Origin: a virus
Direction: 5' to 3' (one strand)
Virus record (IMG/VR): IMGVR_UViG_3300042197_002234
Span: 96,001-160,000 of that record
DNA: 64,000 nucleotides
The translations under genes were made by a program, and so were the position numbers. The notes under the pieces were generated by a model. The model was given only the letters and a program-made list of their open reading frames with translations. It made no database searches and was not told the origin of the DNA. Shown here in pieces: positions 10,074 through 30,552 of the stretch (the stretch's first letter is position 1; each line of letters opens with the position of its first letter).

Positions 10074-10104
10074 TATATTTGTATAAGAATTAAGTTCTTT
10101 AACA
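10074..10104 (+). promoter_or_regulatory. Bacteroidetes-type -7 promoter element plus boxA upstream of tmRNA
   Basis: TATATTTG at 10074-10081; GTTCTTTAACA at 10094-10104, 3 nt before the tmRNA. Confidence 0.7.
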
Positions 10105-10107
10105 TAT

Positions 10108-10502
10108 GGGGGTAACTCGGAATTGACTGACATAGTTGGTTATTCGGGGCACGCAGTGAGAGGGTTCCTATCACTTAAATCTATGGAGTCAACGATTAGA
10201 CGGCAACGTTCTAAACAAAATGGCGACTATCGGTCTTATCCGTGAAGACGCTGCGGTTGTAGCCTAAGGGATTAGGAAACACCATTCGGGTCGGGAGGAC
10301 ATTAACCCAGGAACAGAAGTCCTTATCAGGTGTGGTTTCTATCTTAAAAGGAACAAGTGGAGGATTAGTTCTCAGTAAACCGAACCACTTTAAAAATAAG
10401 GGAATTGTGAAATTTCGGAACATTAGCTTAAATGTTGTCCTAAGCGTGTAGTCCTTAGTAGTCAAGATGGACAAGACGACGGTTCGAACCCGTCTACCTC
10501 CA
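10108..10502 (+). ncRNA. ssrA: tmRNA; tag reading frame 10202-10267, (A)GNVLNKMATIGLIREDAAVVA*
   Basis: 5' GGGGGTA pairs with 3' TACCTCC-A including G3-U70; T-arm GACGG-TTCGAAC-CCGTC; internal ORF ending AAVVA-TAA; UUCG terminator at 10509-10537. Confidence 0.93.
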
Positions 10503-10506
10503 CTTA

Positions 10507-11551: not shown

Positions 11552-12413
11552 TAGGCTGAGAATACACCTTTTGTTGAGAACCTTTAGGGACATTATTGTT
11601 TCTTCCCGTTTCCACTTCCTTTTGAGAAGTATTTCTCAGTGACGGTTATTTAGGTGAACCACTCCTTGAGGTTTGAATTACTCTCATCTTACTTGACTCT
11701 TTCCGAGGATGCCTCCCCAGTTCGTCCTTGCGGGACTAAAGGTTTTTCGGATAACTACACGTTGGCTTGGGACCTCAGTGTGCAATGAACGGCTCATTAC
11801 TAAGTAGTCACCTTTCATTCAAACCTGACGGACACTTTTCCTTTTATTATTATTAAATGGTCTTTAATTTCAAATAAAGAGTTTTGTGTCGTGGATTGTC
11901 GAAGTAGTGGTCCGTCTGAGGATTTGTTATCTTTTGAACAACAAAATACCAAACTACTCCGTGAGATGTCCCCACCTCCATACTTCAAGACTACTTCGAG
12001 AAAATCCCTTTGGTAAAGGAAATTCAAGGATAATGTCGGCACCACCCGTTTGTTATCATACCTTTCGGTTTTAAGTATCCTATGATATTGGAACCCTCAA
12101 TAATGATTTTGGAAAACCATGTTTTGATTGATTCCTACGGGTTATTCCTATTGGTGTTCCCACCTCAAACAGACGACCCACATCGCCTGTTCATCTAACC
12201 ACTTTCCCTACAGCGTTGCCCTCGGTACTAAAGGTTAAACGGTATCCCGCTTGTGTACTCGACCTCGGTTTCCCAAGACGCAAATCTGTCAACACAACAG
12301 ACTCACTTTATCCCACTTTCGTGGTTTATTTAACGACCATACACGGCCGATTATCGTTTTCAAGTTATCATCACTCCGAAGAGTTACTTTCACCTGATGG
12401 ATAATTCAATAAG
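11552..12413 (-). ncRNA. Probable GOLLD-family giant ncRNA (~860 nt)
   Basis: ORF-free, GC-richer than the flanks, many GNRA/UUCG-capped helices, follows promoter plus boxA; size, phage/tRNA context and the 3' GGTGTATTCTCAGCCT end resemble GOLLD as recalled, not searched. Confidence 0.65.
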
Positions 12414-12731
12414 TCAAAGAACTTTTGAGAGTTGTATCTGAATCGTTGTCATTCTCAATTGTTTTACAAAGTTAAGAAGATTTTTTCTATTTGTCAAATT
12501 TTTCTTAAACTTTTTTTTTGATTACTATAACCGTTGTGGTAATATGTTTCACTTACACTTTAAATGCGAAGGACATCTGCTTTATTTCATACAGTTGAAA
12601 GTTTGTCCCGTAGTCACTTTCCTCACATACAACAGTAGCCCTACGGACCTAGACTGTTTCTGTAACCAATATTTTCAAAGAACTTTTGAGAGTTGTATCT
12701 GAATCGTTGTCATTCTCAATTGTTTTACAAA
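12414..12731 (-). repeat. Identical 57-bp direct repeat (12414-12470 and 12675-12731): promoter-proximal leader with hairpin and boxA
   Basis: TCAAAGAACTTTTGAGAGTTGTATCTGAATCGTTGTCATTCTCAATTGTTTTACAAA twice, each next to a minus-strand TAnnTTTG (12467-12474, 12728-12735). Confidence 0.9.
12520..12674 (-). ncRNA. Small structured RNA with a potential pseudoknot
   Basis: Own promoter plus boxA; AACAGT/ACTGTT hairpin whose loop GTCCGTAG is complementary to downstream CTACGG(G)AC; TACAG/CTGTA helix. Confidence 0.55.
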
Positions 12732-21006: not shown

Positions 21007-21504
21007 TTATTTTATTTCAAACGCACAACGGACAACACGACGTTTTTTAATTGCATCTTCAGTGTTACCAATAACAACACCATCTTTAATGGTAAAAGCG
21101 TGACCACGAACAAGAATGAAAAAAGTACCTTTAGGATTTTGTTTTATAAAAGTACCAACGGTCATTTCACGTTTAATTTTTTGACCTTTAACTTTAACTT
21201 CATAAACCAAAGAATTTGCCATCCAATTATTAGTACGATTACCAACTGTATACACACGTTTACCGTTAACTTCAGTATTATTGTCAGACATATTAACCAA
21301 TTTTGATGAGGTCATAAACGTACCTTTTCTTGGTTTTCTTTTAAAATGTTCGGCAACATATTGGTGAGCAAAATCATAGTCAACTTCAAATGACGAGGCA
21401 AAAGCTCTAACAACACAATCATTTGTTTCACCTTTAGCGATTGAGGATTCAAAATATCCTTTAATAGCTTCGTATCTGTTGCAATATGGGAGTCTGTCAT
21501 TCAT
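21007..21504 (-). CDS. Hypothetical protein (DCVVRA..HAF papain-like signature)
   Basis: Start MNDRLP after a TATCTTTG promoter at 21509-21516. Confidence 0.6.
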   Translation of the reverse strand: MNDRLPYCNRYEAIKGYFESSIAKGETNDCVVRAFASSFEVDYDFAHQYVAEHFKRKPRKGTFMTSSKLVNMSDNNTEVNGKRVYTVGNRTNNWMANSLVYEVKVKGQKIKREMTVGTFIKQNPKGTFFILVRGHAFTIKDGVVIGNTEDAIKKRRVVRCAFEIK

Positions 21505-21555
21505 AATACAAAGATACAAAAAAAATCTGAACCAAAAAAATATTGGTAAAAAAAG

Positions 21556-21629
21556 TGGACCCTGCAGGGCTTGAACCTGCGACCCCTGCATTATGAGTGC
21601 AACGCTCTAACCATCTGAGCTAAGAGTCC
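21556..21629 (-). tRNA. tRNA-CAT, probably Ile2 (lysidine type) or elongator Met
   Basis: Cloverleaf GGACTCT/AGGGTCC-A, loop CT-CAT-AA. Confidence 0.85.
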
Positions 21630-21819
21630 TAAAAATAAAAAATGATGTGGGGTATTCCTATTTAGTTTAAATTAACCAGTAGTCTGTTAATGTACACTTG
21701 TTGGTTTTACATCCCCACACCAATAACACACTCATAAGCATTCTACTTCCAGCTCCGAGAAATCGTATCTAACTTAGCCCATCTCACCGCTGTATGGGTA
21801 CTTAAGTTTATGTGTTTTG

Positions 21820-21891
21820 TAGCCCCTACGGGAATCGAACCCGTCTTTTTAGGATGAAAACCTAATGTCCTAACCGATAGACGAAAGGGCC
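21820..21891 (-). tRNA. tRNA-Glu(TTC)
   Basis: Cloverleaf, TTAGG-TT-TTC-AT-CCTAA. Confidence 0.9.
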
Positions 21892-22427
21892 ATAAATAAA
21901 AGGTGTTGAATCATCCCTACGCCATTATAGGAACACCTTTTGTTTTAATATTTGGCGAATTAATATTCCTACCTATATTCCCAAGATTCGTCAGAACATA
22001 GTAACCATCCAAGGTAGGCCTATACTATTACACTCCGTCCATATTTACTCACCTAATCAGATTAGTCATAGGTTTTTCAGATACAGCGTTCAGTGCTACC
22101 CTCAGGACATCTTCACCCTACCCCATAGTTACGTGGTGGTCTCACTCGGAAGAAGAGTGTGTATTGTAGAATTGTCCAGTATTTCTACAACTTGTGGATT
22201 GTATTATGACTAATTAAAGCCCCTAACCCCCTTAATCCATAATGGGGAACTCTTGTTTTAAAGATTCCAACATACCTGAAAGAACTTCCCCTTCTCAGTG
22301 AACACCGTTTATAAGGTGTTATATGTTTTTCACTTTGTGTGTATCTATCCCCCATAGCCCCAAAGACTTCTAGTCGGGGTTCACACACCATAACAGTCGA
22401 GTACTACTGTTAATCGTGGGGTCATTT

Positions 22428-22519
22428 GCTGATTAAAGGGAATCGAACCCAATCCTCCGACCCCGTTTACCCCTATGAGGGGGCCACTAGGGTCAGTATG
22501 CCCATTACATCATAACCAA
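22428..22519 (-). ncRNA. tRNA-like RNA with an extended anticodon arm (92 nt)
   Basis: Acceptor TTGGTTA/TAATCAG, D-arm ATGT/GCAT, TTCGATT T-loop; arm CTGACCC..GCCCC-TCATA-GGGGT..GGGTCGG. Confidence 0.6.
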
Positions 22520-22568
22520 TCGTCAGTTTCGAACCTGACAGTTCAAGGTTAATTACTCCTTGAGTTTG

Positions 22569-22646
22569 TTGCGATTTGTGGACTCGAACCACACAGGGGG
22601 TGCGACCCAACTCGGTTCATGAGACCGACCTTACACCTGTATCGCA
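22569..22646 (-). tRNA. Atypical tRNA-CAT with a truncated D-arm and long variable arm
   Basis: TGCGAT/ATCGCA acceptor, TCGGT-CTCATGA-ACCGA, TGTGG-TTCGAGT-CCACA. Confidence 0.55.
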
Positions 22647-22651
22647 GTTTT

Positions 22652-22736
22652 TGGTACTCGGAGCGGGACTCGAACCCGCACGGACAATGTCCAGCAGATT
22701 TTAAGTCTGCCTTGGCTACCTTTACAACACCCGAGC
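22652..22736 (-). tRNA. tRNA-Leu(TAA), CCA encoded
   Basis: GCAGA-CT-TAA-AA-TCTGC, long variable arm. Confidence 0.9.
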
Positions 22737-22808
22737 GTTTATTTCAAAGAACACTACAAAGATAAAGAACAAATTTCATATGAACAATACCTTTATAATT
22801 TTTTTTTG

Positions 22809-22912
22809 TCCACTCTGTTGGATTCGAACCAACTTACTCACTCTATATTCGGATACTGCAGTATCAGGCGATATAGAGGTCATCGTGTTTTACCACATAA
22901 CACTAAGAGTGA
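22809..22912 (-). ncRNA. tRNA-like RNA with an extended anticodon arm (104 nt)
   Basis: Acceptor TCACTCT/AGAGTGG-A, D-stem GTGT/ACAC, T-arm GTTGG-TTCGAAT-CCAAC; arm CTCTATAT..GATAC-TGCA-GTATC..ATATAGAG. Confidence 0.65.
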
Positions 22913-22917
22913 ATTTG

Positions 22918-22991
22918 TAGTCGGGGTGGGAATTGAACCCACGACCTTGATGATATAAGCATCCTGCTCTCGACCCCTGAGCTACCCGACC
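22918..22991 (-). tRNA. tRNA-Ile(TAT)
   Basis: Cloverleaf, GATG-CT-TAT-AT-CATC. Confidence 0.85.
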
Positions 22992-23207
22992 AAATGCCCC
23001 CACCCTGAGATTCCAGGTGAGTAGATATATCGGTTTTCTTTCTTTCAATAAACCTGTGGGTCTTACCCTCTTAAAATTAGTCAACACTACTGGGAGGGAT
23101 TGTGTCGGTTCCCTTTGTTCCCACGATGTCCCACTCGCGCCGTAGACATTCTGCGGAATCATTCTTAAAGTCTTGATTCGAAGACTCTGAGTATCTCTTA
23201 CTCATTG

Positions 23208-23279
23208 AGCTTCCACCCAGGGTCGAACTGGGGACTACTGATTACAAGTCAGTTATTTTACCTGCTAAACTACAGAAGC
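23208..23279 (-). tRNA. tRNA-Thr(TGT)
   Basis: ACTGA-CT-TGT-AA-TCAGT. Confidence 0.9.
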
Positions 23280-23289
23280 TTATTTATCG

Positions 23290-23436
23290 TATCTCCGATG
23301 GGAATCGAACCCACCTTGTAAATTACTTGTCAATTGCTCTGACTTATCTCTACAAACTAGTATAAGTAGTGTTAGGCCAATTAACCATCATTTACCCACT
23401 CACTGTTTTTGGTGCGACCTCAACAGATACGGAGAT
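23290..23436 (-). ncRNA. Giant tRNA-like RNA (147 nt)
   Basis: Perfect acceptor ATCTCCG/CGGAGAT-A, T-arm GTGGG-TTCGATT-CCCAT, enlarged D-like hairpin and ~75 nt irregular hairpin in the anticodon position. Confidence 0.6.
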
Positions 23437-23442
23437 GTTTTG

Positions 23443-23522
23443 TACCGAAGGAGAGACTCGAACTCTCACGCCATATGCAGATGCTTCTAAAACATCCGTG
23501 TCTACCATTCCACCACTTCGGC
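23443..23522 (-). tRNA. tRNA-Leu(TAG)
   Basis: GATGT-TT-TAG-AA-GCATC. Confidence 0.9.
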
Positions 23523-23633
23523 AATTTGTGGGTAGGGTCCTCCCACATTAGACTTAAGGTTTCGGATTCTTTAAAGACAATTCCTAAATGTCAACCGCCC
23601 GCATGTCCTTCACCTTAAAGCGGGAGCCCCTTA

Positions 23634-23709
23634 TGGAGCGAGAGACGAGATTTGAACTCGCGACCCCAACCTTGGCAAGGTTGTGCTCTACCAACTGAGC
23701 TACTCCCGC
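23634..23709 (-). tRNA. tRNA-Gly(GCC), CCA encoded
   Basis: AACCT-T-GCC-AA-GGTT cloverleaf. Confidence 0.92.
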
Positions 23710-23917
23710 AATTAAAAGAAACTTTCCTTCTACGCTCACCGTAGTTTTGGATTTTACTGATGGTTGGTTCCCCATCACCTGTTATGAGTGCACCATAGAG
23801 CAGGGTCCATCACAGAGTCCTTCGGGTCATGTACCTTCGTTATAGTTGCGACCTATTTGAAGCCGAAGTACCTTTCAACGGTGCTAATCCGTCTTCTGTA
23901 AGGAAAGGTTCTTTTTG

Positions 23918-23990
23918 AGCAGGTGGAGGTAATCGAAACCTCATCTTCAGAGTGGAAATCTGACATAATATGCCATTATACGACACCTGC
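23918..23990 (-). tRNA. tRNA-Gly(TCC)
   Basis: TCAGA-TT-TCC-AC-TCTGA. Confidence 0.88.
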
Positions 23991-24085
23991 GTATTCGAGT
24001 CAGAGTAGTCACGGCCACCTCTGTTCCTTCTGACTCTTATTATAACCGTGGCAAAATGTGGCTCGACCCAAGTTATAATCATTAG

Positions 24086-24160
24086 TTGCGGGGGTAGGAT
24101 TCGAACCTACGTCATTCGGCTTATGAGACCGAGCTGGAACCAACTCCAGTCCACCCCGCC
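24086..24160 (-). tRNA. tRNA-Met(CAT), initiator-like
   Basis: 1:72 mismatch (G.A), TCGGT-CTCATAA-GCCGA. Confidence 0.85.
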
Positions 24161-24165
24161 ATTTG

Positions 24166-24237
24166 CGGTCCGTGCGGGAGTCGAACCCGCCACACTGCCG
24201 TGACAGGGCAGCATTATAGCCGATTAACTAACGGACC
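24166..24237 (-). tRNA. tRNA-Asp(GTC)
   Basis: CTGCC-CT-GTC-AC-GGCAG. Confidence 0.92.
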
Positions 24238-24243
24238 TAATTG

Positions 24244-24318
24244 TGGAGACAGTGGGAATTGAACCCACCACACTTTCCTTGCAAGGGAAAATCGCCAAGC
24301 CTTGGTACATGTGTCCCC
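24244..24318 (-). tRNA. tRNA-Ala(TGC)
   Basis: G3-U70, TTTCC-CT-TGC-AA-GGAAA. Confidence 0.9.
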
Positions 24319-24411
24319 ATTTTTTTTTCTTCACCAATATGTCAAAGAACCTTTATCTTTTTAACAACACTACAAAGTTACAAAAGAAATTTTAAAAAAA
24401 CAACATCCTTG

Positions 24412-24451
24412 AAAAACAAAAAACCCACCTTTTTATGGGTGGGTTTGGTAT
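24412..24451 (-). terminator. Attenuator terminator of tRNA leader 1
   Basis: AAACCCACC-CATAAAAA-GGTGGGTTT-TTTGTTTTT. Confidence 0.85.
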
Positions 24452-24471
24452 TTCATAGTGTTAGTTTAAAA

Positions 24472-24543
24472 TCATACCATACCCACCTGAGTCAATCCTA
24501 TTGCTTCAGTTGTGCCTAAAAGTATGATATCTAAATTTCTCAT
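24472..24543 (-). CDS. Leader peptide 1 (MRNLDIILLGTTEAIGLTQVGMV*) of a putative tRNA-operon attenuator
   Basis: A-rich initiation context; the last codons GGTGGGTATGGTAT pair 13/14 with ATACCAAACCCACC in the terminator 5' arm. Confidence 0.75.
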   Translation of the reverse strand: MRNLDIILLGTTEAIGLTQVGMV

Positions 24544-24616
24544 TTTTTGCGTTATTGTTTTTTCTTAAATATACCCATTTTTAAAAAAGTATCAATATTA
24601 AGTTTAAAAATACCGA

Positions 24617-24811
24617 TTATTTTTTTGCTTCGGTAATTTTTTCTTTAAACTCAAACCTAATTGTATCACCAACACTATACTTTCGATTGGTACCAATAAT
24701 ACCCGTTTCTAAATGATTTTCAGCGTTTTTTACCTCATAGGTATAGGTTCCGTTAACATCAATGTCACAACAAAGAACCAAAAAAAGTTTAATAATTACA
24801 ATCTCTTTCAT
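24617..24811 (-). CDS. Small hypothetical protein with a hydrophobic N-terminus
   Basis: Start MKEIVIIKLFLVLCC. Confidence 0.5.
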   Translation of the reverse strand: MKEIVIIKLFLVLCCDIDVNGTYTYEVKNAENHLETGIIGTNRKYSVGDTIRFEFKEKITEAKK

Positions 24812-24815
24812 ATGA

Positions 24816-25283
24816 TTAATTTTTAGTAAATGATTTATCTGCCCAAGTTTTAGCACCCATACGCTCCCAAATTTGGATATCACACATTTCAGGGAAAGAA
24901 GTTCTCATGTCACCAACAGTCAACACTTCCAAGAACCCTTTGTCAATACCAAACCACTTTCCGCTCTTGGTGGTGTATACGTTCATCCAATGACCGTACT
25001 CATTTTTAACCTGAATGTTAACCAAGGCGTTTTTCTTGAATCCAGCGATTACGTTTTTAGGGTAATCAGTTGTGTCACTCATTGTAATGAAACCAGCCTT
25101 ACATTTTACTGCCACACGAAACTCATATTTTTTATCAGTGTCTTTAATGTGGTTTGACACCATTACGTTTATTAATTTGTCTTTGATTCGAGTTTTGAAT
25201 GAACCGAAGAATACATCTCCAGCCATTGTTCCTACAGTTTCTACGATAATTGAGCTTGGGGTGTTTGTGTTGGTATTTGTCAT
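24816..25283 (-). CDS. Hypothetical protein
   Basis: Start MTNTNTN after a TATCTTTG promoter at 25305-25312. Confidence 0.65.
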   Translation of the reverse strand: MTNTNTNTPSSIIVETVGTMAGDVFFGSFKTRIKDKLINVMVSNHIKDTDKKYEFRVAVKCKAGFITMSDTTDYPKNVIAGFKKNALVNIQVKNEYGHWMNVYTTKSGKWFGIDKGFLEVLTVGDMRTSFPEMCDIQIWERMGAKTWADKSFTKN

Positions 25284-25342
25284 ATTATTTCCGATTTTGT
25301 TATACAAAGATACAACAAAATTTCAAACTACCAAAACTTTTT

Positions 25343-25804
25343 TTAAAAAAGATAAGAATGTCTGTATTGTAATGGAATTGCTAACCCAAAACCCCAATAT
25401 TTTTCATTAGACACACTATAAGCAATTGCTATATCCCATTGATTTCTTTTTTGAGTTATCATCTTTAATGGGTGAAATTTAACCCAAACTTCAGGTTTTA
25501 TTTCTTTATTGGTATTTGGTAATGTATTGAATTTAATACCCGTACCGATAACTAATCCATTTTTTAAAACACCATAATTAATTCCAAATCTGTTTAAATA
25601 AGGGCTTGGATTCATTTGTCCTATCGGTGCTGAAACCATCCACATATTGTAACCTCCTCCCGCATGAATACCAAACCCTTTGGTGTCCAAGTTTTCCATA
25701 GATAACATAAAACTTTGTTCACCAGGAAAATATGTAATACCTGAGTACTGACCCCACACTTTTGACGTAAAAAATAACGTCAATATAAAAATTATTTTTT
25801 TCAT
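25343..25804 (-). CDS. Secreted or outer-membrane beta-rich protein
   Basis: Signal peptide MKKIIFILTLFFTSKVWGQ; alternating aromatic beta-strand pattern. Confidence 0.6.
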   Translation of the reverse strand: MKKIIFILTLFFTSKVWGQYSGITYFPGEQSFMLSMENLDTKGFGIHAGGGYNMWMVSAPIGQMNPSPYLNRFGINYGVLKNGLVIGTGIKFNTLPNTNKEIKPEVWVKFHPLKMITQKRNQWDIAIAYSVSNEKYWGFGLAIPLQYRHSYLF

Positions 25805-25807
25805 TTG

Positions 25808-25893
25808 TGGAAGTGGTAGGATTCGAACCTACAAGTTTACCGCAAGGGACCTGTTTTACAGACAGGCGAGCACACCATTTGCTCAACACTTCC
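25808..25893 (-). tRNA. tRNA-Tyr(GTA)
   Basis: CCTGT-CT-GTA-AA-ACAGG, long variable arm. Confidence 0.92.
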
Positions 25894-26104
25894 AAGTTAG
25901 GAAAGAGGAAGATGGTTCAGTGGACATCCTCTTTTACGATTGGCGTTACTCAGGTGTATATCTCCAAACTCCGATGATACCGACCGATATACACTCTCAT
26001 GTCATAGGTATCACCATTCCCCAATCAACCTATAATTTTAAACTAACACCATGACTCCTTTCGACCTTGCACGAGTCGTATCATTCAACTCTGTGTTAGT
26101 TTTG

Positions 26105-26179
26105 CTCCCTCGACAGGATTCGAACCTGTGACCCAACGGTTAACAGCCGTTTGCTCTAAACCTACTGAGCTACGAAGGA
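26105..26179 (-). tRNA. tRNA-Asn(GTT)
   Basis: AACGG-CT-GTT-AA-CCGTT. Confidence 0.92.
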
Positions 26180-26184
26180 ATTTG

Positions 26185-26255
26185 CACGGATAGAAGGACT
26201 CGAACCTCCACCAACAGTTTTGGAGACTGGGATGCTACCATTACACCATATCCGT
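26185..26255 (-). tRNA. tRNA-Trp(CCA)
   Basis: CAGT-CT-CCA-AA-ACTG. Confidence 0.92.
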
Positions 26256-26262
26256 GTGTTTG

Positions 26263-26336
26263 AGGTCAGAGTCAGATTTGAACTGACGAATACTTGTTTT
26301 GCAGACAAGCCCCTTAAACCACTTGGGTATCTGACC
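26263..26336 (-). tRNA. tRNA-Cys(GCA)
   Basis: CTTGT-CT-GCA-AA-ACAAG, U73. Confidence 0.92.
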
Positions 26337-26393
26337 TTAGAGTGTAGTGGGGGGTACCTCCCCTGTGGTTACTACACATTTAACCCACTTTAG

Positions 26394-26468
26394 TGTCCCC
26401 GACAGGGCTCGAACCTGTGACCCGTACATTAAAAGTGTACTGCTCTAATCCAACTGAGCTACGAAGAC
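26394..26468 (-). tRNA. tRNA-Lys(TTT)
   Basis: GTACA-CT-TTT-AA-TGTAC. Confidence 0.92.
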
Positions 26469-26531
26469 ATAATTTACGGCTCAAAGAATCTGAGTTTGTG
26501 GCTCAGAAACGCCCAATTTTGAGCCGTATTG

Positions 26532-26606
26532 TAGTCAAGGTTGGACTTGAACCAACGACCTTCTGCGTATCAGGCAGACGCTCTAAACCGACTGAGCTAC
26601 ATGACT
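26532..26606 (-). tRNA. tRNA-Ile(GAT)
   Basis: TCTGC-CT-GAT-AC-GCAGA. Confidence 0.92.
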
Positions 26607-26695
26607 ATGTTTTAGTTTTACTGAGCAAATATAACCATTTTTTGGTATATAACGCTCTGTTTTACTATTTTTTTTTTAATATTACCCGACATCAA

Positions 26696-27241
26696 TCATT
26701 TTGATTCAAACTTTTTAATAAAATTTTCACGATAATTGTCAATTATTTGTGAAATTTCACTTCTATACTTTGAGTGTATGTAGTGATGGTGTGTCGGACA
26801 TAACGGTATTAGGTTTTCTATTGAGTTATTAGTATGAACTTCATCGTAGTGGTGAACCGCAACTATTTTATTTTCACCACAAACAACACATTTGTGTTCA
26901 TGATGTTCAAAACAGATTCTACGATAACCATTTTTAGTTTCCGAATATTTACCCCAATTAGGGTTATTTTCACCACTTCTAAAATAAGTATTAGAACAAG
27001 AATGAGAACATGTAACTTTTTCATCTCTATTACCTTTTGAAGTTTCAAAAGATTTGTTACAAACAGGACATTCTTTAATTATTCTATTATAGATTAATTT
27101 TCTACTCCTCAAATGACTAATATCCACCCCATTTTGGTTTATGAATGATTCAAACTTTTTTCTATTTGACCCATTATCATATCCAAACATTTTTATTATC
27201 GCTTCTGACTTAGTTTTCGATGTTTTAATTATATCCTCCAT
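26696..27241 (-). CDS. HNH endonuclease inserted in the tRNA array
   Basis: CPVC..CSHSC zinc finger; CVVCG..VAVHH..H.NN..ENLIPLCPTHH HNH motif. Confidence 0.85.
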   Translation of the reverse strand: MEDIIKTSKTKSEAIIKMFGYDNGSNRKKFESFINQNGVDISHLRSRKLIYNRIIKECPVCNKSFETSKGNRDEKVTCSHSCSNTYFRSGENNPNWGKYSETKNGYRRICFEHHEHKCVVCGENKIVAVHHYDEVHTNNSIENLIPLCPTHHHYIHSKYRSEISQIIDNYRENFIKKFESK

Positions 27242-27304
27242 ACTAATAAATATCTAAATTTGTCGTAAAGTCAAATTTTAATCAAAACTTGTTTAAACGA
27301 TTAG

Positions 27305-27379
27305 TCGGGTAGACTGGACTCGAACCAGCACAATGTCCTCATCCCAAATGAGGCGACCTACCAATTGGTCTACTACCCG
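27305..27379 (-). tRNA. tRNA-Pro(TGG)
   Basis: CCTCA-TT-TGG-GA-TGAGG. Confidence 0.92.
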
Positions 27380-27389
27380 TTACTTTCAG

Positions 27390-27475
27390 CGGAAGGAGAG
27401 GGGCTCGAACCCTCGCGGCTTTGACACCCTAACAGTTTAGCAAACTGCCCCCTTCACCAACTTGGGTACCCTTCC
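27390..27475 (-). tRNA. tRNA-Ser(GCT)
   Basis: CAGT-TT-GCT-AA-ACTG, long variable arm, G73. Confidence 0.92.
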
Positions 27476-27512
27476 TTTTTTTCCGACCTAGCTCGGGAAC
27501 ACACATCGGATG

Positions 27513-27584
27513 TAGTTCTTGAAGGACTTGAACCCTCAATTCCTCGTCCGTAGCGAGACGTGTTATCCATTACACCAAAGAACT
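27513..27584 (-). tRNA. tRNA-Arg(ACG)
   Basis: CTCG-CT-ACG-GA-CGAG. Confidence 0.9.
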
Positions 27585-27588
27585 ATTT

Positions 27589-27678
27589 TGGCGGAAGCGA
27601 AGGGAATCGAACCCCCAACACGCTATTAACGTGCTACTTGTTTTCAAGACAAGCTCCTCGTCCATTCGGACCACTTCC
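27589..27678 (-). tRNA. tRNA-Ser(TGA), CCA encoded
   Basis: CTTGT-CT-TGA-AA-ACAAG, long variable arm. Confidence 0.92.
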
Positions 27679-27782
27679 ATTTTTTTAGGTCGTGACGAAC
27701 CCATCTGTCACTTCTTAATAGATTCTTGTAGTTTACTTACCGCGGTTCAATCCGTTACTAACAGGGAACCCAACCTATTTTG

Positions 27783-27854
27783 GGTGTAGGGACGGTACCG
27801 ACCCGTCTTATCTAGTTCCACAAACTAGTGCATCACCTTAATGCTTCAAACACC
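27783..27854 (-). tRNA. tRNA-His(GTG) with G-1 and an atypical T-loop
   Basis: CTAGT-TT-GTG-GA-ACTAG; G-1:C73; T-loop GTCGGTA; two acceptor mismatches. Confidence 0.8.
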
Positions 27855-28006
27855 ATGTAAAATTGATGGTAATTGGATTTATCAGGAATCCCGTCCACGA
27901 CTTCACACACCATTAGAGAGTTGAGTATTTCTACTTATCCTTAGTGTGTACCCTTGCGTCACGTCTCTCCACGCTTACCAATCTACGCCTTGTACCATCA
28001 ATTTTG

Positions 28007-28140
28007 TAGTCAGGGTCGGACTCGAACCGAATACCGTTCAAGACGGATTAGACAACCTTACGACTCCATAGAACCCACAAGTGTCTGGGACTATTGGTCT
28101 TGGGGACTCGGGTACCATCCCTCATTACGTCCACCTAACT
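28007..28140 (-). ncRNA. Giant tRNA-like RNA (134 nt)
   Basis: Acceptor AGTTAGG/CCTGACT-A, T-arm TCGG-TTCGAGT-CCGA, variable hairpin CCGT-CTTGA-ACGG, long arm tipped by CCCA..TGGG. Confidence 0.6.
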
Positions 28141-28215
28141 ATTTACCCCACTTCACCAGCTTAACGGACTGGCTGCCATGTGGGAGTGGGGGTTTCCTGT
28201 TATTTCAGGACTCCG

Positions 28216-28288
28216 TGGTGAGAGCTGGAATCGAACCAGCGGCACGTAGGGCTTCAACCTACTGCTCTACCTACTGAGCTATCACACC
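28216..28288 (-). tRNA. tRNA-Phe(GAA)
   Basis: GTAGG-TT-GAA-GC-CCTAC. Confidence 0.9.
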
Positions 28289-28449
28289 ATATAAAAAATG
28301 ATAGTGTTGGGATACCCGTCTCGTCCCAATCTTAACTGCTTAATCGTAGTTTTACGAGGCCTCGGCAGAGGGTGTTGAACACTGTGAACCTTACAACTAC
28401 TTTGTCGACTTTCATTGTAAGAGTGACCACTATCAATATTTTTTCTATT

Positions 28450-28525
28450 TCAAAGAACCCTTTTCGTCTGGGGTGTAGGTAACCCTATCAAACCTACACC
28501 CCCATCGTTTGTGAATACAAAGTTA
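28450..28525 (-). promoter_or_regulatory. Internal promoter, GC-rich hairpin and boxA inside tRNA operon 2
   Basis: TAACTTTG 28518-28525; GGGGTGTAGG..CCTACACCCC hairpin; GTTCTTTGA 28450-28458. Confidence 0.7.
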
Positions 28526-28569
28526 CAAAACATTTTTCTAACTAACAAGTACCCACTTATTTTTTTTTG

Positions 28570-28643
28570 TAGTCCCTGTCGGATTCGAACCAACGACCCT
28601 CTGCATGTAAGGCAGATGCTCTAACCAACTGAGCTAAAGGACT
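28570..28643 (-). tRNA. tRNA-Val(TAC)
   Basis: TCTGC-CT-TAC-AT-GCAGA. Confidence 0.92.
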
Positions 28644-28649
28644 ATTAAG

Positions 28650-28719
28650 TTGCGTGTTCGGGGTTCGAACCCGATTGACCTTCCTTATGAGAGAAAGTTC
28701 TTTTCCCCTAAGCCACGCA
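28650..28719 (-). tRNA. tRNA-Met(CAT) with a degenerate D-arm
   Basis: TGCGTG/CACGCA acceptor, TTCT-CTCATAA-GGAA, TCGGG-TTCGAAC-CCCGA. Confidence 0.65.
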
Positions 28720-28726
28720 ATTTATG

Positions 28727-28797
28727 TTACCCCCCAAGGATTCGAACCTCGATTAAGTGGACCAAAACCACTTGTCCTGCCATTAGACGAGAGGGTA
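28727..28797 (-). tRNA. tRNA-Gln(TTG)
   Basis: AGTGG-TT-TTG-GT-CCACT. Confidence 0.92.
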
Positions 28798-28828
28798 ATT
28801 TTAGGTTACCAATATGTCAAAGAACCCG

Positions 28829-28865
28829 TAAAACAAAAAACCCCGAACTTTTTATGGTTCGGGGT
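28829..28865 (-). terminator. Attenuator terminator of tRNA leader 2
   Basis: ACCCCGAAC-CATAAAAA-GTTCGGGGT-TTTTTGTTTT; boxA GTTCTTTGACATATTGGT follows at 28808-28825. Confidence 0.85.
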
Positions 28866-28897
28866 CTGTTATCTGTTTTACTTTCAAATATCCACAA

Positions 28898-28987
28898 TTA
28901 TTCCGAACCAATATTTTGCACACGTGGATACCAGCAATTTTTAAATTGCGACTTACTGATAATGACCATATGTTTATTAGTTCTCAT
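28898..28987 (-). CDS. Leader peptide 2 (MRTNKHMVIISKSQFKNCWYPRVQNIGSE*) of a putative tRNA-operon attenuator
   Basis: Directly after the TAACTTTG promoter (29011-29018); terminal codons TGGTTCGG are complementary to CCGAACCA in the terminator 5' arm/loop. Confidence 0.8.
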   Translation of the reverse strand: MRTNKHMVIISKSQFKNCWYPRVQNIGSE

Positions 28988-29047
28988 TGTATTTTAATTT
29001 ATAAGTATTACAAAGTTAAGAAAAATTTTAGACAAGTCAAACTTTTT

Positions 29048-29305
29048 TTAAAATCTTTTCGCAATTTTAAGAATTGTTTCCTCTTCTTCCCTAGTTAACA
29101 TCAACCTACTGTTAGATAATTTATCCAAAGCGATTCCCCATTCTAACTCCATAATGTTTTTTCGTTCTTCAGGAACATTGTAATAAGTTGGTTTGATATG
29201 ACCATCCTCGGTCAGAATATCAATCAATTCTTTAATTTCTCTTTTTGAACAAGCGTCAACAAAATCGCTTGGGTCTATGTCTACATAAGATTCAAATTCT
29301 GGCAT
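29048..29305 (-). CDS. Hypothetical protein
   Basis: 85 aa ORF. Confidence 0.65.
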   Translation of the reverse strand: MPEFESYVDIDPSDFVDACSKREIKELIDILTEDGHIKPTYYNVPEERKNIMELEWGIALDKLSNSRLMLTREEEETILKIAKRF

Positions 29306-29317
29306 ATTTTTTTAATA

Positions 29318-29551
29318 TTAAATGGTTTCGTCAATTTTATCTTGAATTTCAATAATTTTTGATTCAATGTATCTTTCTAATTTTTCTGACACATTAAGAT
29401 ATTGTTCCCTTAGTTTATGAAATTCTTCATCATTAATTTCTTTAAAAGAACTATAATGCTTGAAACAATAGTGGAATCCTTCCGCACCTATTCTGTATCG
29501 AACCATTTCAAAGTTCTCTAATTCTTCATGTAAATAATCTATATTACTCAT
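29318..29551 (-). CDS. Hypothetical protein
   Basis: 77 aa ORF overlapping the upstream gene. Confidence 0.65.
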   Translation of the reverse strand: MSNIDYLHEELENFEMVRYRIGAEGFHYCFKHYSSFKEINDEEFHKLREQYLNVSEKLERYIESKIIEIQDKIDETI

Positions 29552-30267
29552 TGGTTTAATTTTCTTTTACAGTTATTACAAAATTCTTTACGGTTAGTAC
29601 CATTAACTTTCATTAAACAGTCTTCGTCGTCGCAGTGATTTAGACCAAAGTTGTGACCTAATTCATGATTAGCAACATTCTGTAGGTTAGAAATTCTATA
29701 GTTACCGTTAATCTTTAATTGATAAGTACTAACAACAGCGGCGTCATGGTAAAATCTTGCGTAACCACTAATTAATTCAAGGTTATTCTCATGAGAACAC
29801 AAAGGATGATTAGTAACATATACGTGACGACCATCACCATCACCTTCTTCCAAGTTTAAAGTTTCAAGAGCATTAACATATTCACCGTTAATGAAATAAC
29901 GAGAGCTAGGGTTTGAATGTGGATTACCGATTTTAGTTTCTAAACCGTAAAAATTTTCGATTCCCTGGCAAACAGTCTCCAAATCTTCATGACTGTAATC
30001 ACCAAAACCATGAACATATACAATGTTTTTCGGTTTTTTAGTTTCAGATTTAACAACAGGTTTAGTTGATGGTTTATTTTTTACATCAACTGATTTACCA
30101 TATTTACCTAACTTATGTTCTTTGTCATAAGAATCCGCATATTCAGCAGCACTTTGTTTGAATTTATCAATACTATAGTTGTGTTTTTCGGCAAGTTCAA
30201 ATAAAGAACCAACAATTACTACAACAATACAAAGATTTACAATTGATTTTAATGGTGATGTTTTCAT
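29548..30267 (-). CDS. Membrane-anchored archaemetzincin (M54)-like zinc metalloprotease
   Basis: HELGHNFGLNHC..CLM..FCNNC; N-terminal TM segment. Confidence 0.85.
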   Translation of the reverse strand: MKTSPLKSIVNLCIVVVIVGSLFELAEKHNYSIDKFKQSAAEYADSYDKEHKLGKYGKSVDVKNKPSTKPVVKSETKKPKNIVYVHGFGDYSHEDLETVCQGIENFYGLETKIGNPHSNPSSRYFINGEYVNALETLNLEEGDGDGRHVYVTNHPLCSHENNLELISGYARFYHDAAVVSTYQLKINGNYRISNLQNVANHELGHNFGLNHCDDEDCLMKVNGTNRKEFCNNCKRKLNQ

Positions 30268-30321
30268 ACTACAAAGATACTAAAATTATTTTAACTACCA
30301 AAAAATAATGATAAATATTTG

Positions 30322-30393
30322 TAGGCCCACCAGGACTCGAACCTGGAATAGAAGCTTAGAAGGCTACTGTTATATCCCTTTAACTATGGGCCC
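30322..30393 (-). tRNA. tRNA-Arg(TCT)
   Basis: AGC-CT-TCT-AA-GCT anticodon arm, cloverleaf. Confidence 0.9.
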
Positions 30394-30402
30394 TAATCTA
30401 AA

Positions 30403-30552
30403 TTAGATTTGTTTGATGATGTACTTATGACCTGAATCTGAGTTTTTTTCAAAAAGAGACCTCATTTTTTCAGCCTCTTCTTGAGTTTCAAACTCCATTA
30501 CATCATCTTGACCGTCTAACAAAACAACAGGTAATTCAACGTTAGTTGTCAT
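30403..30552 (-). CDS. Small hypothetical protein
   Basis: MTTNVELPVVLLD..FETQEEAE; co-oriented with tRNA-Arg. Confidence 0.5.
   Translation of the reverse strand: MTTNVELPVVLLDGQDDVMEFETQEEAEKMRSLFEKNSDSGHKYIIKQI

Follow-up and report, generated by a model that had tools for sequence, protein, structure and literature searches.

Putative leader-peptide attenuators ahead of two tRNA gene blocks in an uncultured large phage

INTRODUCTION

Leader-peptide attenuation is a textbook means of controlling amino-acid operons. In the trpL leader of Escherichia coli a kinetic race between ribosome and RNA polymerase decides between 2:3 and 3:4 pairing, the stop codon lies near the antiterminator strand, and two adjacent codons sense a single amino acid; a 1:2 pause hairpin enforces termination on untranslated RNA. 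The ilvGMEDA (Ile/Leu/Val) and thr (Thr/Ile) leaders respond to more than one amino acid, through a promoter, a short leader with the regulatory codons, and exclusive antiterminator and terminator structures, the antiterminator strand being masked by a ribosome at the stop codon. Two further systems tune a component of decoding itself to the tRNA or amino-acid pool by a choice between terminator and antiterminator, namely pheST with its pheM leader, and the T-boxes, which bind tRNA directly without a ribosome. Both are cellular, control synthetases and sense one amino acid or tRNA.

Why phages carry tRNA genes is debated, with codon mismatch, decay of host tRNAs and escape from tRNA-cleaving defences all under discussion. 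To our knowledge, almost nothing has been established about how phages control these genes. A full-text literature search, whose coverage was incomplete, found no account of tRNA genes controlled by a leader peptide.

Here we follow up a prediction that a leader-peptide attenuator keyed to a tRNA operon lies in viral DNA from IMG/VR record IMGVR_UViG_3300042197_002234, of which we analysed a 64,000-nt stretch (the window). Two units of this kind, unit 1 and unit 2, precede two blocks of tRNA genes. An attenuator is expected to have a leader ORF behind a promoter, a terminator before the structural genes, an exclusive antiterminator that a ribosome can mask, and regulatory codons cognate to what the operon supplies. 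The first three are present, and the last is met in a transposed sense, the codons matching the tRNAs encoded downstream.

The units thus share their layout with the ilv and thr leaders, the proposed ribosome/polymerase race and the position of the stop codon with trpL, and the tuning of a decoding component with pheST and the T-boxes. Unlike the ilv and thr leaders they control tRNAs rather than biosynthetic enzymes, are phage-encoded, and span 8 (unit 1) to at least 13 (unit 2) amino acids, mostly by single codons rather than runs. They also have an rRNA-type boxA behind them and no conserved region-1 hairpin that we could find; a counterpart of the 1:2 pause hairpin of trpL is unsupported across families. 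The boxA 18-mer is identical to an element before Bacteroidota 23S rRNA; unlike in rRNA operons, the phage copy precedes tRNA arrays, downstream of a conditional terminator.

MATERIALS AND METHODS

ORF background. The background for leader composition was the complete set of 1808 ORFs that start with ATG and have 15-45 codons, taken from the entire 195.5-kb genome.

Relatives. Related loci were gathered with the boxA 18-mer as seed. Clustering gave 11 leader families, 8 of them clearly independent, with leader ORFs of 23-40 codons. L044, the locus closest to unit 1, was compared by alignment with 24320-24640.

Transcripts. Metatranscriptome contigs came from one run. They covered a small share of the stretch and left 24440-25047 uncovered, and are therefore uninformative on leader expression.

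RESULTS

The phage and its tRNA blocks

The genome that carries the attenuators is a single contig of 195.5 kb with 31.6% G+C, in which GOLLD RNA, tmRNA and freshwater-1 RNA are also encoded, and the stretch was found in freshwater and sediment metagenomes from several studies. This genome content and occurrence mark the source as a large phage that has not been cultured, and its promoter-like boxes follow the Bacteroidota pattern, TTG ... TAnnTTTG. A distant BLASTN search of 24300-25400 against a phage database gave a single irrelevant match of 51 nt.

ARAGORN at default settings places 25 tRNA genes between 21555 and 30393, every one of them on the minus strand, and none elsewhere in the genome. 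Two blocks stand behind attenuator units:

21555-24316, minus strand: tRNA block 1, 11 tRNAs, downstream of attenuator unit 1
28797-25807, minus strand: tRNA block 2, behind unit 2, tRNA-Gln first

Block 1, headed by tRNA-Ala from 24316, reads Ala(TGC), Asp(GTC), Met(CAT), Gly(TCC), Gly(GCC), Leu(TAG), Thr(TGT), Ile(TAT), Leu(TAA), Glu(TTC), Met(CAT). Block 2 has 13 tRNAs at default settings, for 12 amino acids. A low-scoring tRNA-His(GTG) at 27782-27853 (minus strand; 30.2 bits) was missed by default ARAGORN and found by relaxed ARAGORN. Between tRNA-Gln and tRNA-Val lies a weak tRNA-like stretch (28650-28719, minus strand) whose identity as a tRNA-Met is not secured, its score being only 22.7 bits (E 0.46).

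Anatomy of unit 1

Read along the minus strand, unit 1 runs from promoter P1 through an A-rich 5′ UTR, the leader ORF, a terminator, the P2 box and boxA to tRNA-Ala:

24566-24595, minus strand: promoter P1, with TTGATA at 24595-24590, a 16-nt spacer and a -7-like box TATATTTA at 24573-24566
24472-24543, minus strand: leader ORF 1, 23 codons, ATG at 24543, TGA at 24474-24472
24474-24487, minus strand: antiterminator 5′ strand, running from the last base of codon 19 into the first base of the stop
24438-24451, minus strand: antiterminator 3′ strand, overlapping the terminator 5′ arm
24411-24446, minus strand: intrinsic terminator, stem-loop 24446-24421 (9-10 bp, 5 G-C) and T-run 24420-24411
24373-24403, minus strand: internal promoter-like P2, with TTG at 24403-24401, a 20-nt spacer and TAACTTTG at 24380-24373
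24334-24351, minus strand: boxA 18-mer GGTTCTTTGACATATTGG, rRNA-type

P1, which reads TTGATA-16-TATATT over 24595-24568, is a promoter-like element of the Bacteroidota type, only the last base of its box departing from the consensus, and is situated between the stop of the upstream gene (24617) and the leader ORF. No Shine-Dalgarno sequence precedes leader ORF 1, and the 5′ UTR is A-rich, as is usual in Bacteroidota. The ORF itself has exactly the coordinates and codons given in the original prediction. Its codons 4-18 specify only the eight amino acids of the 11 block 1 tRNAs, which bears out the claim that this run is confined to amino acids whose tRNAs lie downstream. ATC had been singled out as the exception at codon level, and indeed no block 1 tRNA decodes it (a block 2 tRNA does); CTT and ACT additionally require relaxed, U34:U wobble by the TAG and TGT anticodons.

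The stem-loop and T-run of the terminator are present where they had been placed, and the final codons of the ORF can form the proposed antiterminator, a helix of 13 bp with one A/A mismatch (24487-24474 with 24451-24438) that overlaps the terminator 5′ arm. The folded leader has a z of -3.8 against shuffles. Before the 3′ arm of the terminator exists, the predicted fold of the nascent RNA is the antiterminator. With a ribosome at codon 8 or 12 the antiterminator is predicted to stay the minimum-energy fold of the full leader, and once the ribosome occupies the stop codon, nothing but the terminator is predicted to be able to form.

Matches to Rfam leader families are below threshold in both units (Phe_leader, 25.8 bits at 24415-24471; Thr_leader, 27.6 bits at 28832-28891; cut-offs 55) and are terminator-like resemblance only.

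A second promoter box between terminator and boxA had been raised as a caveat, in that read-through might then only boost a basal level. The box is present, and it is conserved in L044 and in the unit-1-type families; from this conservation of P2 we judge the caveat right. Transcripts from P2 would start beyond the terminator, and block 1 can therefore not be controlled by the attenuator alone. P2 probably provides basal (constitutive) transcription of the block, to which attenuated P1 transcripts would add an inducible supplement.

Other lake studies supplied DNA contigs that extend across unit 1 and show 12-17 differences from it. Among the differences listed, the best supported within 24342-24573 fall in the spacer (24406, 24408, 24411 and a 2-nt deletion at 24363); we base no inference on them.

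A sister unit ahead of block 2

The same layout recurs ahead of block 2:

28809-29040, minus strand: sister unit 2
29040-29035 and 29018-29011, minus strand: unit 2 promoter, TTGACT and TAACTTTG, of clean Bacteroidota type
28987-28898, minus strand: unit 2 leader ORF, 29 codons
28910-28903 with 28862-28855, minus strand: unit 2 antiterminator, 8 bp
28867-28838, minus strand: unit 2 terminator, loop the same as in unit 1
28826-28809, minus strand: unit 2 boxA, the same 18-mer as in unit 1

Unit 2 is the cleaner of the two. It has no internal promoter, and the core of its leader is a 19-residue run within the tRNA set that takes in 12 of the 12 amino acids of the block 2 tRNAs detected at default settings. 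A His codon is also present, matched by the low-scoring tRNA-His.

Both leaders stand out from the ORFs of their own genome. For the tRNA set of leader 1, an in-set run of at least 15 residues, or of at least 7 set members, is found in two of the 1808 background ORFs, leader 1 included; for its own set, leader 2 ranks first among the 1808. Residues exclusive to one block are distributed between the two leaders as 14/5 versus 4/21 (Fisher p = 1.7e-4). The boxA 18-mer has two copies in the genome, one behind each attenuator.

Recurrence in other viral contigs

The 18-mer was found in more than 116 viral metagenome contigs, mostly with a tRNA array 25-30 nt behind it. A terminator directly precedes the box in 33 non-redundant loci, and nearly all of these have an ORF ending 20-26 nt before the terminator stem; in the 11 families the distance is 20-30 nt. 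An ORF of at least 21 codons that ends 15-35 nt before the terminator is present in 11 of 11 families, versus 4.8% of shuffled upstream regions. Leaders exemplifying the families, and three that the automatic filter missed, are the following, by locus:

L034, 2988-3077, minus strand: leader, family example
L050, 10482-10580, minus strand: leader, family example
L056, 7885-7977, minus strand: leader, family example
L043, 5587-5709, minus strand: leader, family example
L004, 933-1040, plus strand: leader, family example
L102, 4079-4192, plus strand: leader, family example
L023, 8427-8525, plus strand: leader missed by the filter, independent family
L046, 3123-3218, plus strand: leader missed by the filter, unit-2 type
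L091, 3067-3147, minus strand: leader missed by the filter, GTG start, unit-1 type

The L023 leader, a 32-codon ORF, is rich in Thr, Tyr, Leu, Ser, Phe, Pro, Gln, Cys and Glu; the array behind it encodes Cys, Thr, Gln, Pro, Leu, Glu, Tyr and Phe.

Boxes like that of P1 lie 25-50 nt before the leader ATG in other families. All unit-1-type families have a TAnnTTTG ~20 nt before boxA, and in the L060, L027 and L044 families it has the same position as in unit 1. Unit 2 and five other families, among them L102, L034, L043 and L050, lack an internal promoter box, and in these the tRNAs can therefore be reached only through the terminator.

The alignment of unit 1 with L044 separates what is kept from what is free to change. 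The -7 box of P1 and the ORF start are kept, the antiterminator strand is invariant, the terminator is identical, and P2 and boxA are nearly so. The core of the leader ORF is ~50% substituted, with the frame open and exactly 23 codons long in both, and the L044 core is written in the amino acids of its local array. The leader thus appears to be under selection for translation, length and composition, not for peptide sequence.

Leaders covary with tRNA sets

If leaders sample the codons served by the tRNAs behind them, the two should change together. Across the 11 families, a fraction of 0.77-0.80 of the core residues belongs to the family's own tRNA set, versus 0.53 under permutation, and none of 100,000 permutations equalled the true pairing. 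The chance background is this high because tRNA sets cover 7-16 of the 20 amino acids. For the 8 independent families, the true pairing of leaders with sets is the single best of 40,320 permutations. The L034 leader, for instance, is rich in Ser, Thr, Cys, His, Asp and Glu, and its array holds three tRNA-Ser, two tRNA-Thr and one each for Cys, His, Glu and Asp; the L056 leader is made of Arg, Met, Asn, Ile, Cys, Asp and Tyr, exactly the amino acids its array encodes. Codon choice beyond the amino acid, assessed by synonymous shuffling among leaders, adds a modest further match (p = 0.026 with strict wobble, 0.0036 with loose wobble).

The match depends on position. Between codons -9 and -20 from the stop the in-set fraction is 0.9-1.0, and in the last 7 codons it is 0.2-0.5. 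A ribosome stalled fewer than ~8 codons from the stop would itself cover the antiterminator strand, so that a peak at -9 to -20 is what the attenuation model predicts.

Within families, leader and array can also be seen to change jointly. In one family of 20 members, tRNA-Ala is present only in the three whose leader has an Ala codon, and in the unit-1-type family an Arg codon in the leader goes together with tRNA-Arg(TCT) in the array. Each case probably reflects a single evolutionary event and so counts as one observation. Some relatives retain the same leader despite the loss of tRNAs from their arrays.

ORF ends covary with terminators

The second covariation concerns RNA pairing. Each of the 11 families shows pairing over 8-14 bp between the final codons of the ORF and the 5′ arm of the terminator at the same locus, even though the stems differ in sequence. 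The duplex of ORF end and own arm averages -16.2 kcal/mol, versus -8.9 when permuted, and none of 100,000 permutations was as good. The own arm is the best partner in 9 of the 11 families; the exceptions are unit 1 and L044, which share one terminator. A region 1:2 strand is predicted in unit 1, L044 and L027 (z -1.7 to -2.9), and across families such an anti-antiterminator pairing is unsupported (permutation p = 0.18, mean z -0.4).

The 18-mer as an rRNA-type boxA

Most bacterial records that contain the 18-mer are from Bacteroidota, and it lies there 30-50 nt 5′ of the 23S rRNA and behind the spacer tRNAs (placed with Rfam; L122, L129, L138, L156). A regular expression for the 16S start found no match behind the box in these loci, Rfam having placed the box before 23S rRNA. 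The spacer boxA of E. coli rRNA operons occupies the corresponding position, and we identify the 18-mer, by sequence and position, as the Bacteroidota rRNA spacer boxA. That it acts as a Nus site, binding NusB/NusE and yielding a termination-resistant polymerase, is inferred only by analogy with rrn antitermination in E. coli. A conditional terminator placed before boxA would make sense if this inferred step holds.

DISCUSSION

Proposed mechanism

We are fairly confident that the unit is a ribosome-mediated transcription attenuator that gates a phage tRNA operon by measuring decoding speed on the codons these tRNAs serve. The original prediction of a leader-peptide attenuator is upheld to this extent by the full anatomy, by its recurrence and by the two covariations, without experimental evidence. 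Comparative evidence supports attenuation; that the leader is translated, that the hairpin terminates transcription, in which direction the unit responds and what boxA does are inferences from sequence.

The model would run as follows. Host RNA polymerase would start at P1, and a ribosome would at once translate the 23-codon leader, whose codons 4-18 are for the most part ones that the block 1 tRNAs read. With fast decoding, the ribosome would reach the stop codon and cover the antiterminator strand, the terminator would form, and transcription would stop before boxA. With slow decoding, where tRNAs are scarce, uncharged or damaged, the ribosome would lag, the end of the ORF would capture the 5′ arm of the terminator, and polymerase would read through, meet boxA, there presumably become termination-resistant, and transcribe the tRNA block. 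Each unit would in this way sum decoding time over the codons served by its own tRNAs, a form of negative feedback on the supply of tRNAs. Since a leader samples most of its tRNAs with just one to three codons, it is better regarded as summing over the whole set than as a sharp sensor of one species, and its sensitivity to any single tRNA may be low. The phage probably makes more block 1 tRNAs when ribosomes read the codons of these tRNAs slowly.

Alternative explanations

The same switch geometry would work with any codons. A general sensor of translation status, responding to ribosome availability (e.g. during host shut-off) and indifferent to codon content, is therefore to be weighed, the more so as single codons per tRNA give weak specificity and as untranslated nascent RNA is predicted to fold into the antiterminator with no conserved anti-antiterminator to oppose it. 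We regard such a sensor as unlikely: it leaves unexplained why leaders match their tRNA sets (in 8 independent families, the best of 40,320 pairings), why in-set codons concentrate 9-20 codons before the stop, and why Ala and Arg codons were gained jointly with their tRNAs. There is no more than a slim chance, in our estimate, that the ORF encodes a small functional peptide, possibly membrane-active, with its own terminator, and that block 1 is transcribed only from P2. The strong conservation of P2, the hydrophobic leader 1 peptide and the loose pattern at N-terminus and C-terminus shared by unit-1-type leaders would suit such a peptide. Its core, however, is ~50% substituted between unit 1 and L044 with composition, frame and length kept; the conserved C-terminal codons coincide exactly with the strand that base-pairs to the terminator arm in the RNA; the layout is the same in units that have no internal promoter (unit 2, L102, L034, L043, L050); and unrelated leaders match unrelated tRNA sets.

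T-boxes too sense tRNA charging through a choice of terminator or antiterminator, and a leader RNA that binds uncharged tRNA directly would make the ORF incidental. This is very unlikely, given that no T-box covariance-model match was found at E up to 1 in 21400-30500, that the leader is too short for a specifier stem and a T-box, that 8-15 tRNAs cannot be specified by one RNA, and that an open frame at a fixed distance to the terminator is conserved. As for a chance ORF beside the terminator of the upstream gene, AT-rich DNA is full of short ORFs and 4.8% of shuffles place one correctly; yet such an ORF accompanies every one of the 11 families, the rank of the leader among 1808 genome ORFs and both covariation tests support function, and a promoter intervenes between the stop of the upstream gene (24617) and the ORF, so that chance is hardly credible. 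None of these alternatives accounts for both covariations and the positional profile together.

Significance

If leaders sample codons as the attenuation model holds, the phage would possess a direct feedback sensor of decoding capacity. Classical attenuation, which senses one to three amino acids and controls enzymes, would then extend to 8-15 amino acids and to tRNA genes. With less assurance, we lean towards a broader reading, in which these units represent a widespread and undescribed class of tRNA-supply sensor in phages of Bacteroidota, perhaps also of other hosts. Each block would be gated by its own codon-sampling leader, replacement tRNAs would be switched on if, and only if, those of the host for the sampled codons are limiting, whether through codon-usage mismatch, decay of host tRNAs during infection or an anticodon-nuclease defence, and boxA would commit polymerase to the array. 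The model predicts that read-through rises on depletion of cognate tRNAs and falls when phage tRNAs are supplied. It also offers a simple sequence signature by which regulated tRNA operons may be recognized in metagenomes, and points to small, programmable elements with which tRNA supply might be controlled synthetically.

Other features of the arrays

The 18-mer is also found behind a G+C-rich stretch in L001, L017, L028, L035 and ~15 near-identical viral loci; no tRNA or rRNA was found near the box in contigs of the L001/L017/L035 type, and no Rfam hit in L017 or L035.

One tRNA gene, tRNA-Arg(TCT) at 30321-30393 (minus strand), is isolated upstream of both gated blocks. Codon 2 of both leaders is AGA, the codon this tRNA reads.

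Freshwater-1 RNA (Rfam RF02979, 76 bits) lies inside block 1 at 23752-23814 (minus strand), between the two tRNA-Gly genes, and would therefore be co-transcribed with the gated tRNAs. The arrays contain long tRNA-free gaps (21892-22651, 27854-28214 and 22753-22916, all minus strand), in which relaxed ARAGORN reports odd candidates, intron-containing or elongated and tRNA-like; the gaps may hold other structured RNAs. Within block 2, between tRNA-Pro and tRNA-Ile, a 181-aa ORF (26696-27241, minus strand) has Cys pairs and a His-rich C-terminal part and, without a Pfam search having been made, looks like an HNH-type homing endonuclease.

Besides the two full 18-mers there are five shorter boxA-like copies, GTTCTTTGA or GTTCTTTAACA, at 10094-10104 (plus strand) and at 12412-12422, 12673-12683, 22742-22752 and 28448-28458 (minus strand). 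One directly precedes the tmRNA gene (10108-10505), two lie inside the tRNA arrays, and two are 450-720 nt upstream of GOLLD RNA (11553-11961). The phage seems to place rRNA-type antitermination sites before its stable RNAs.
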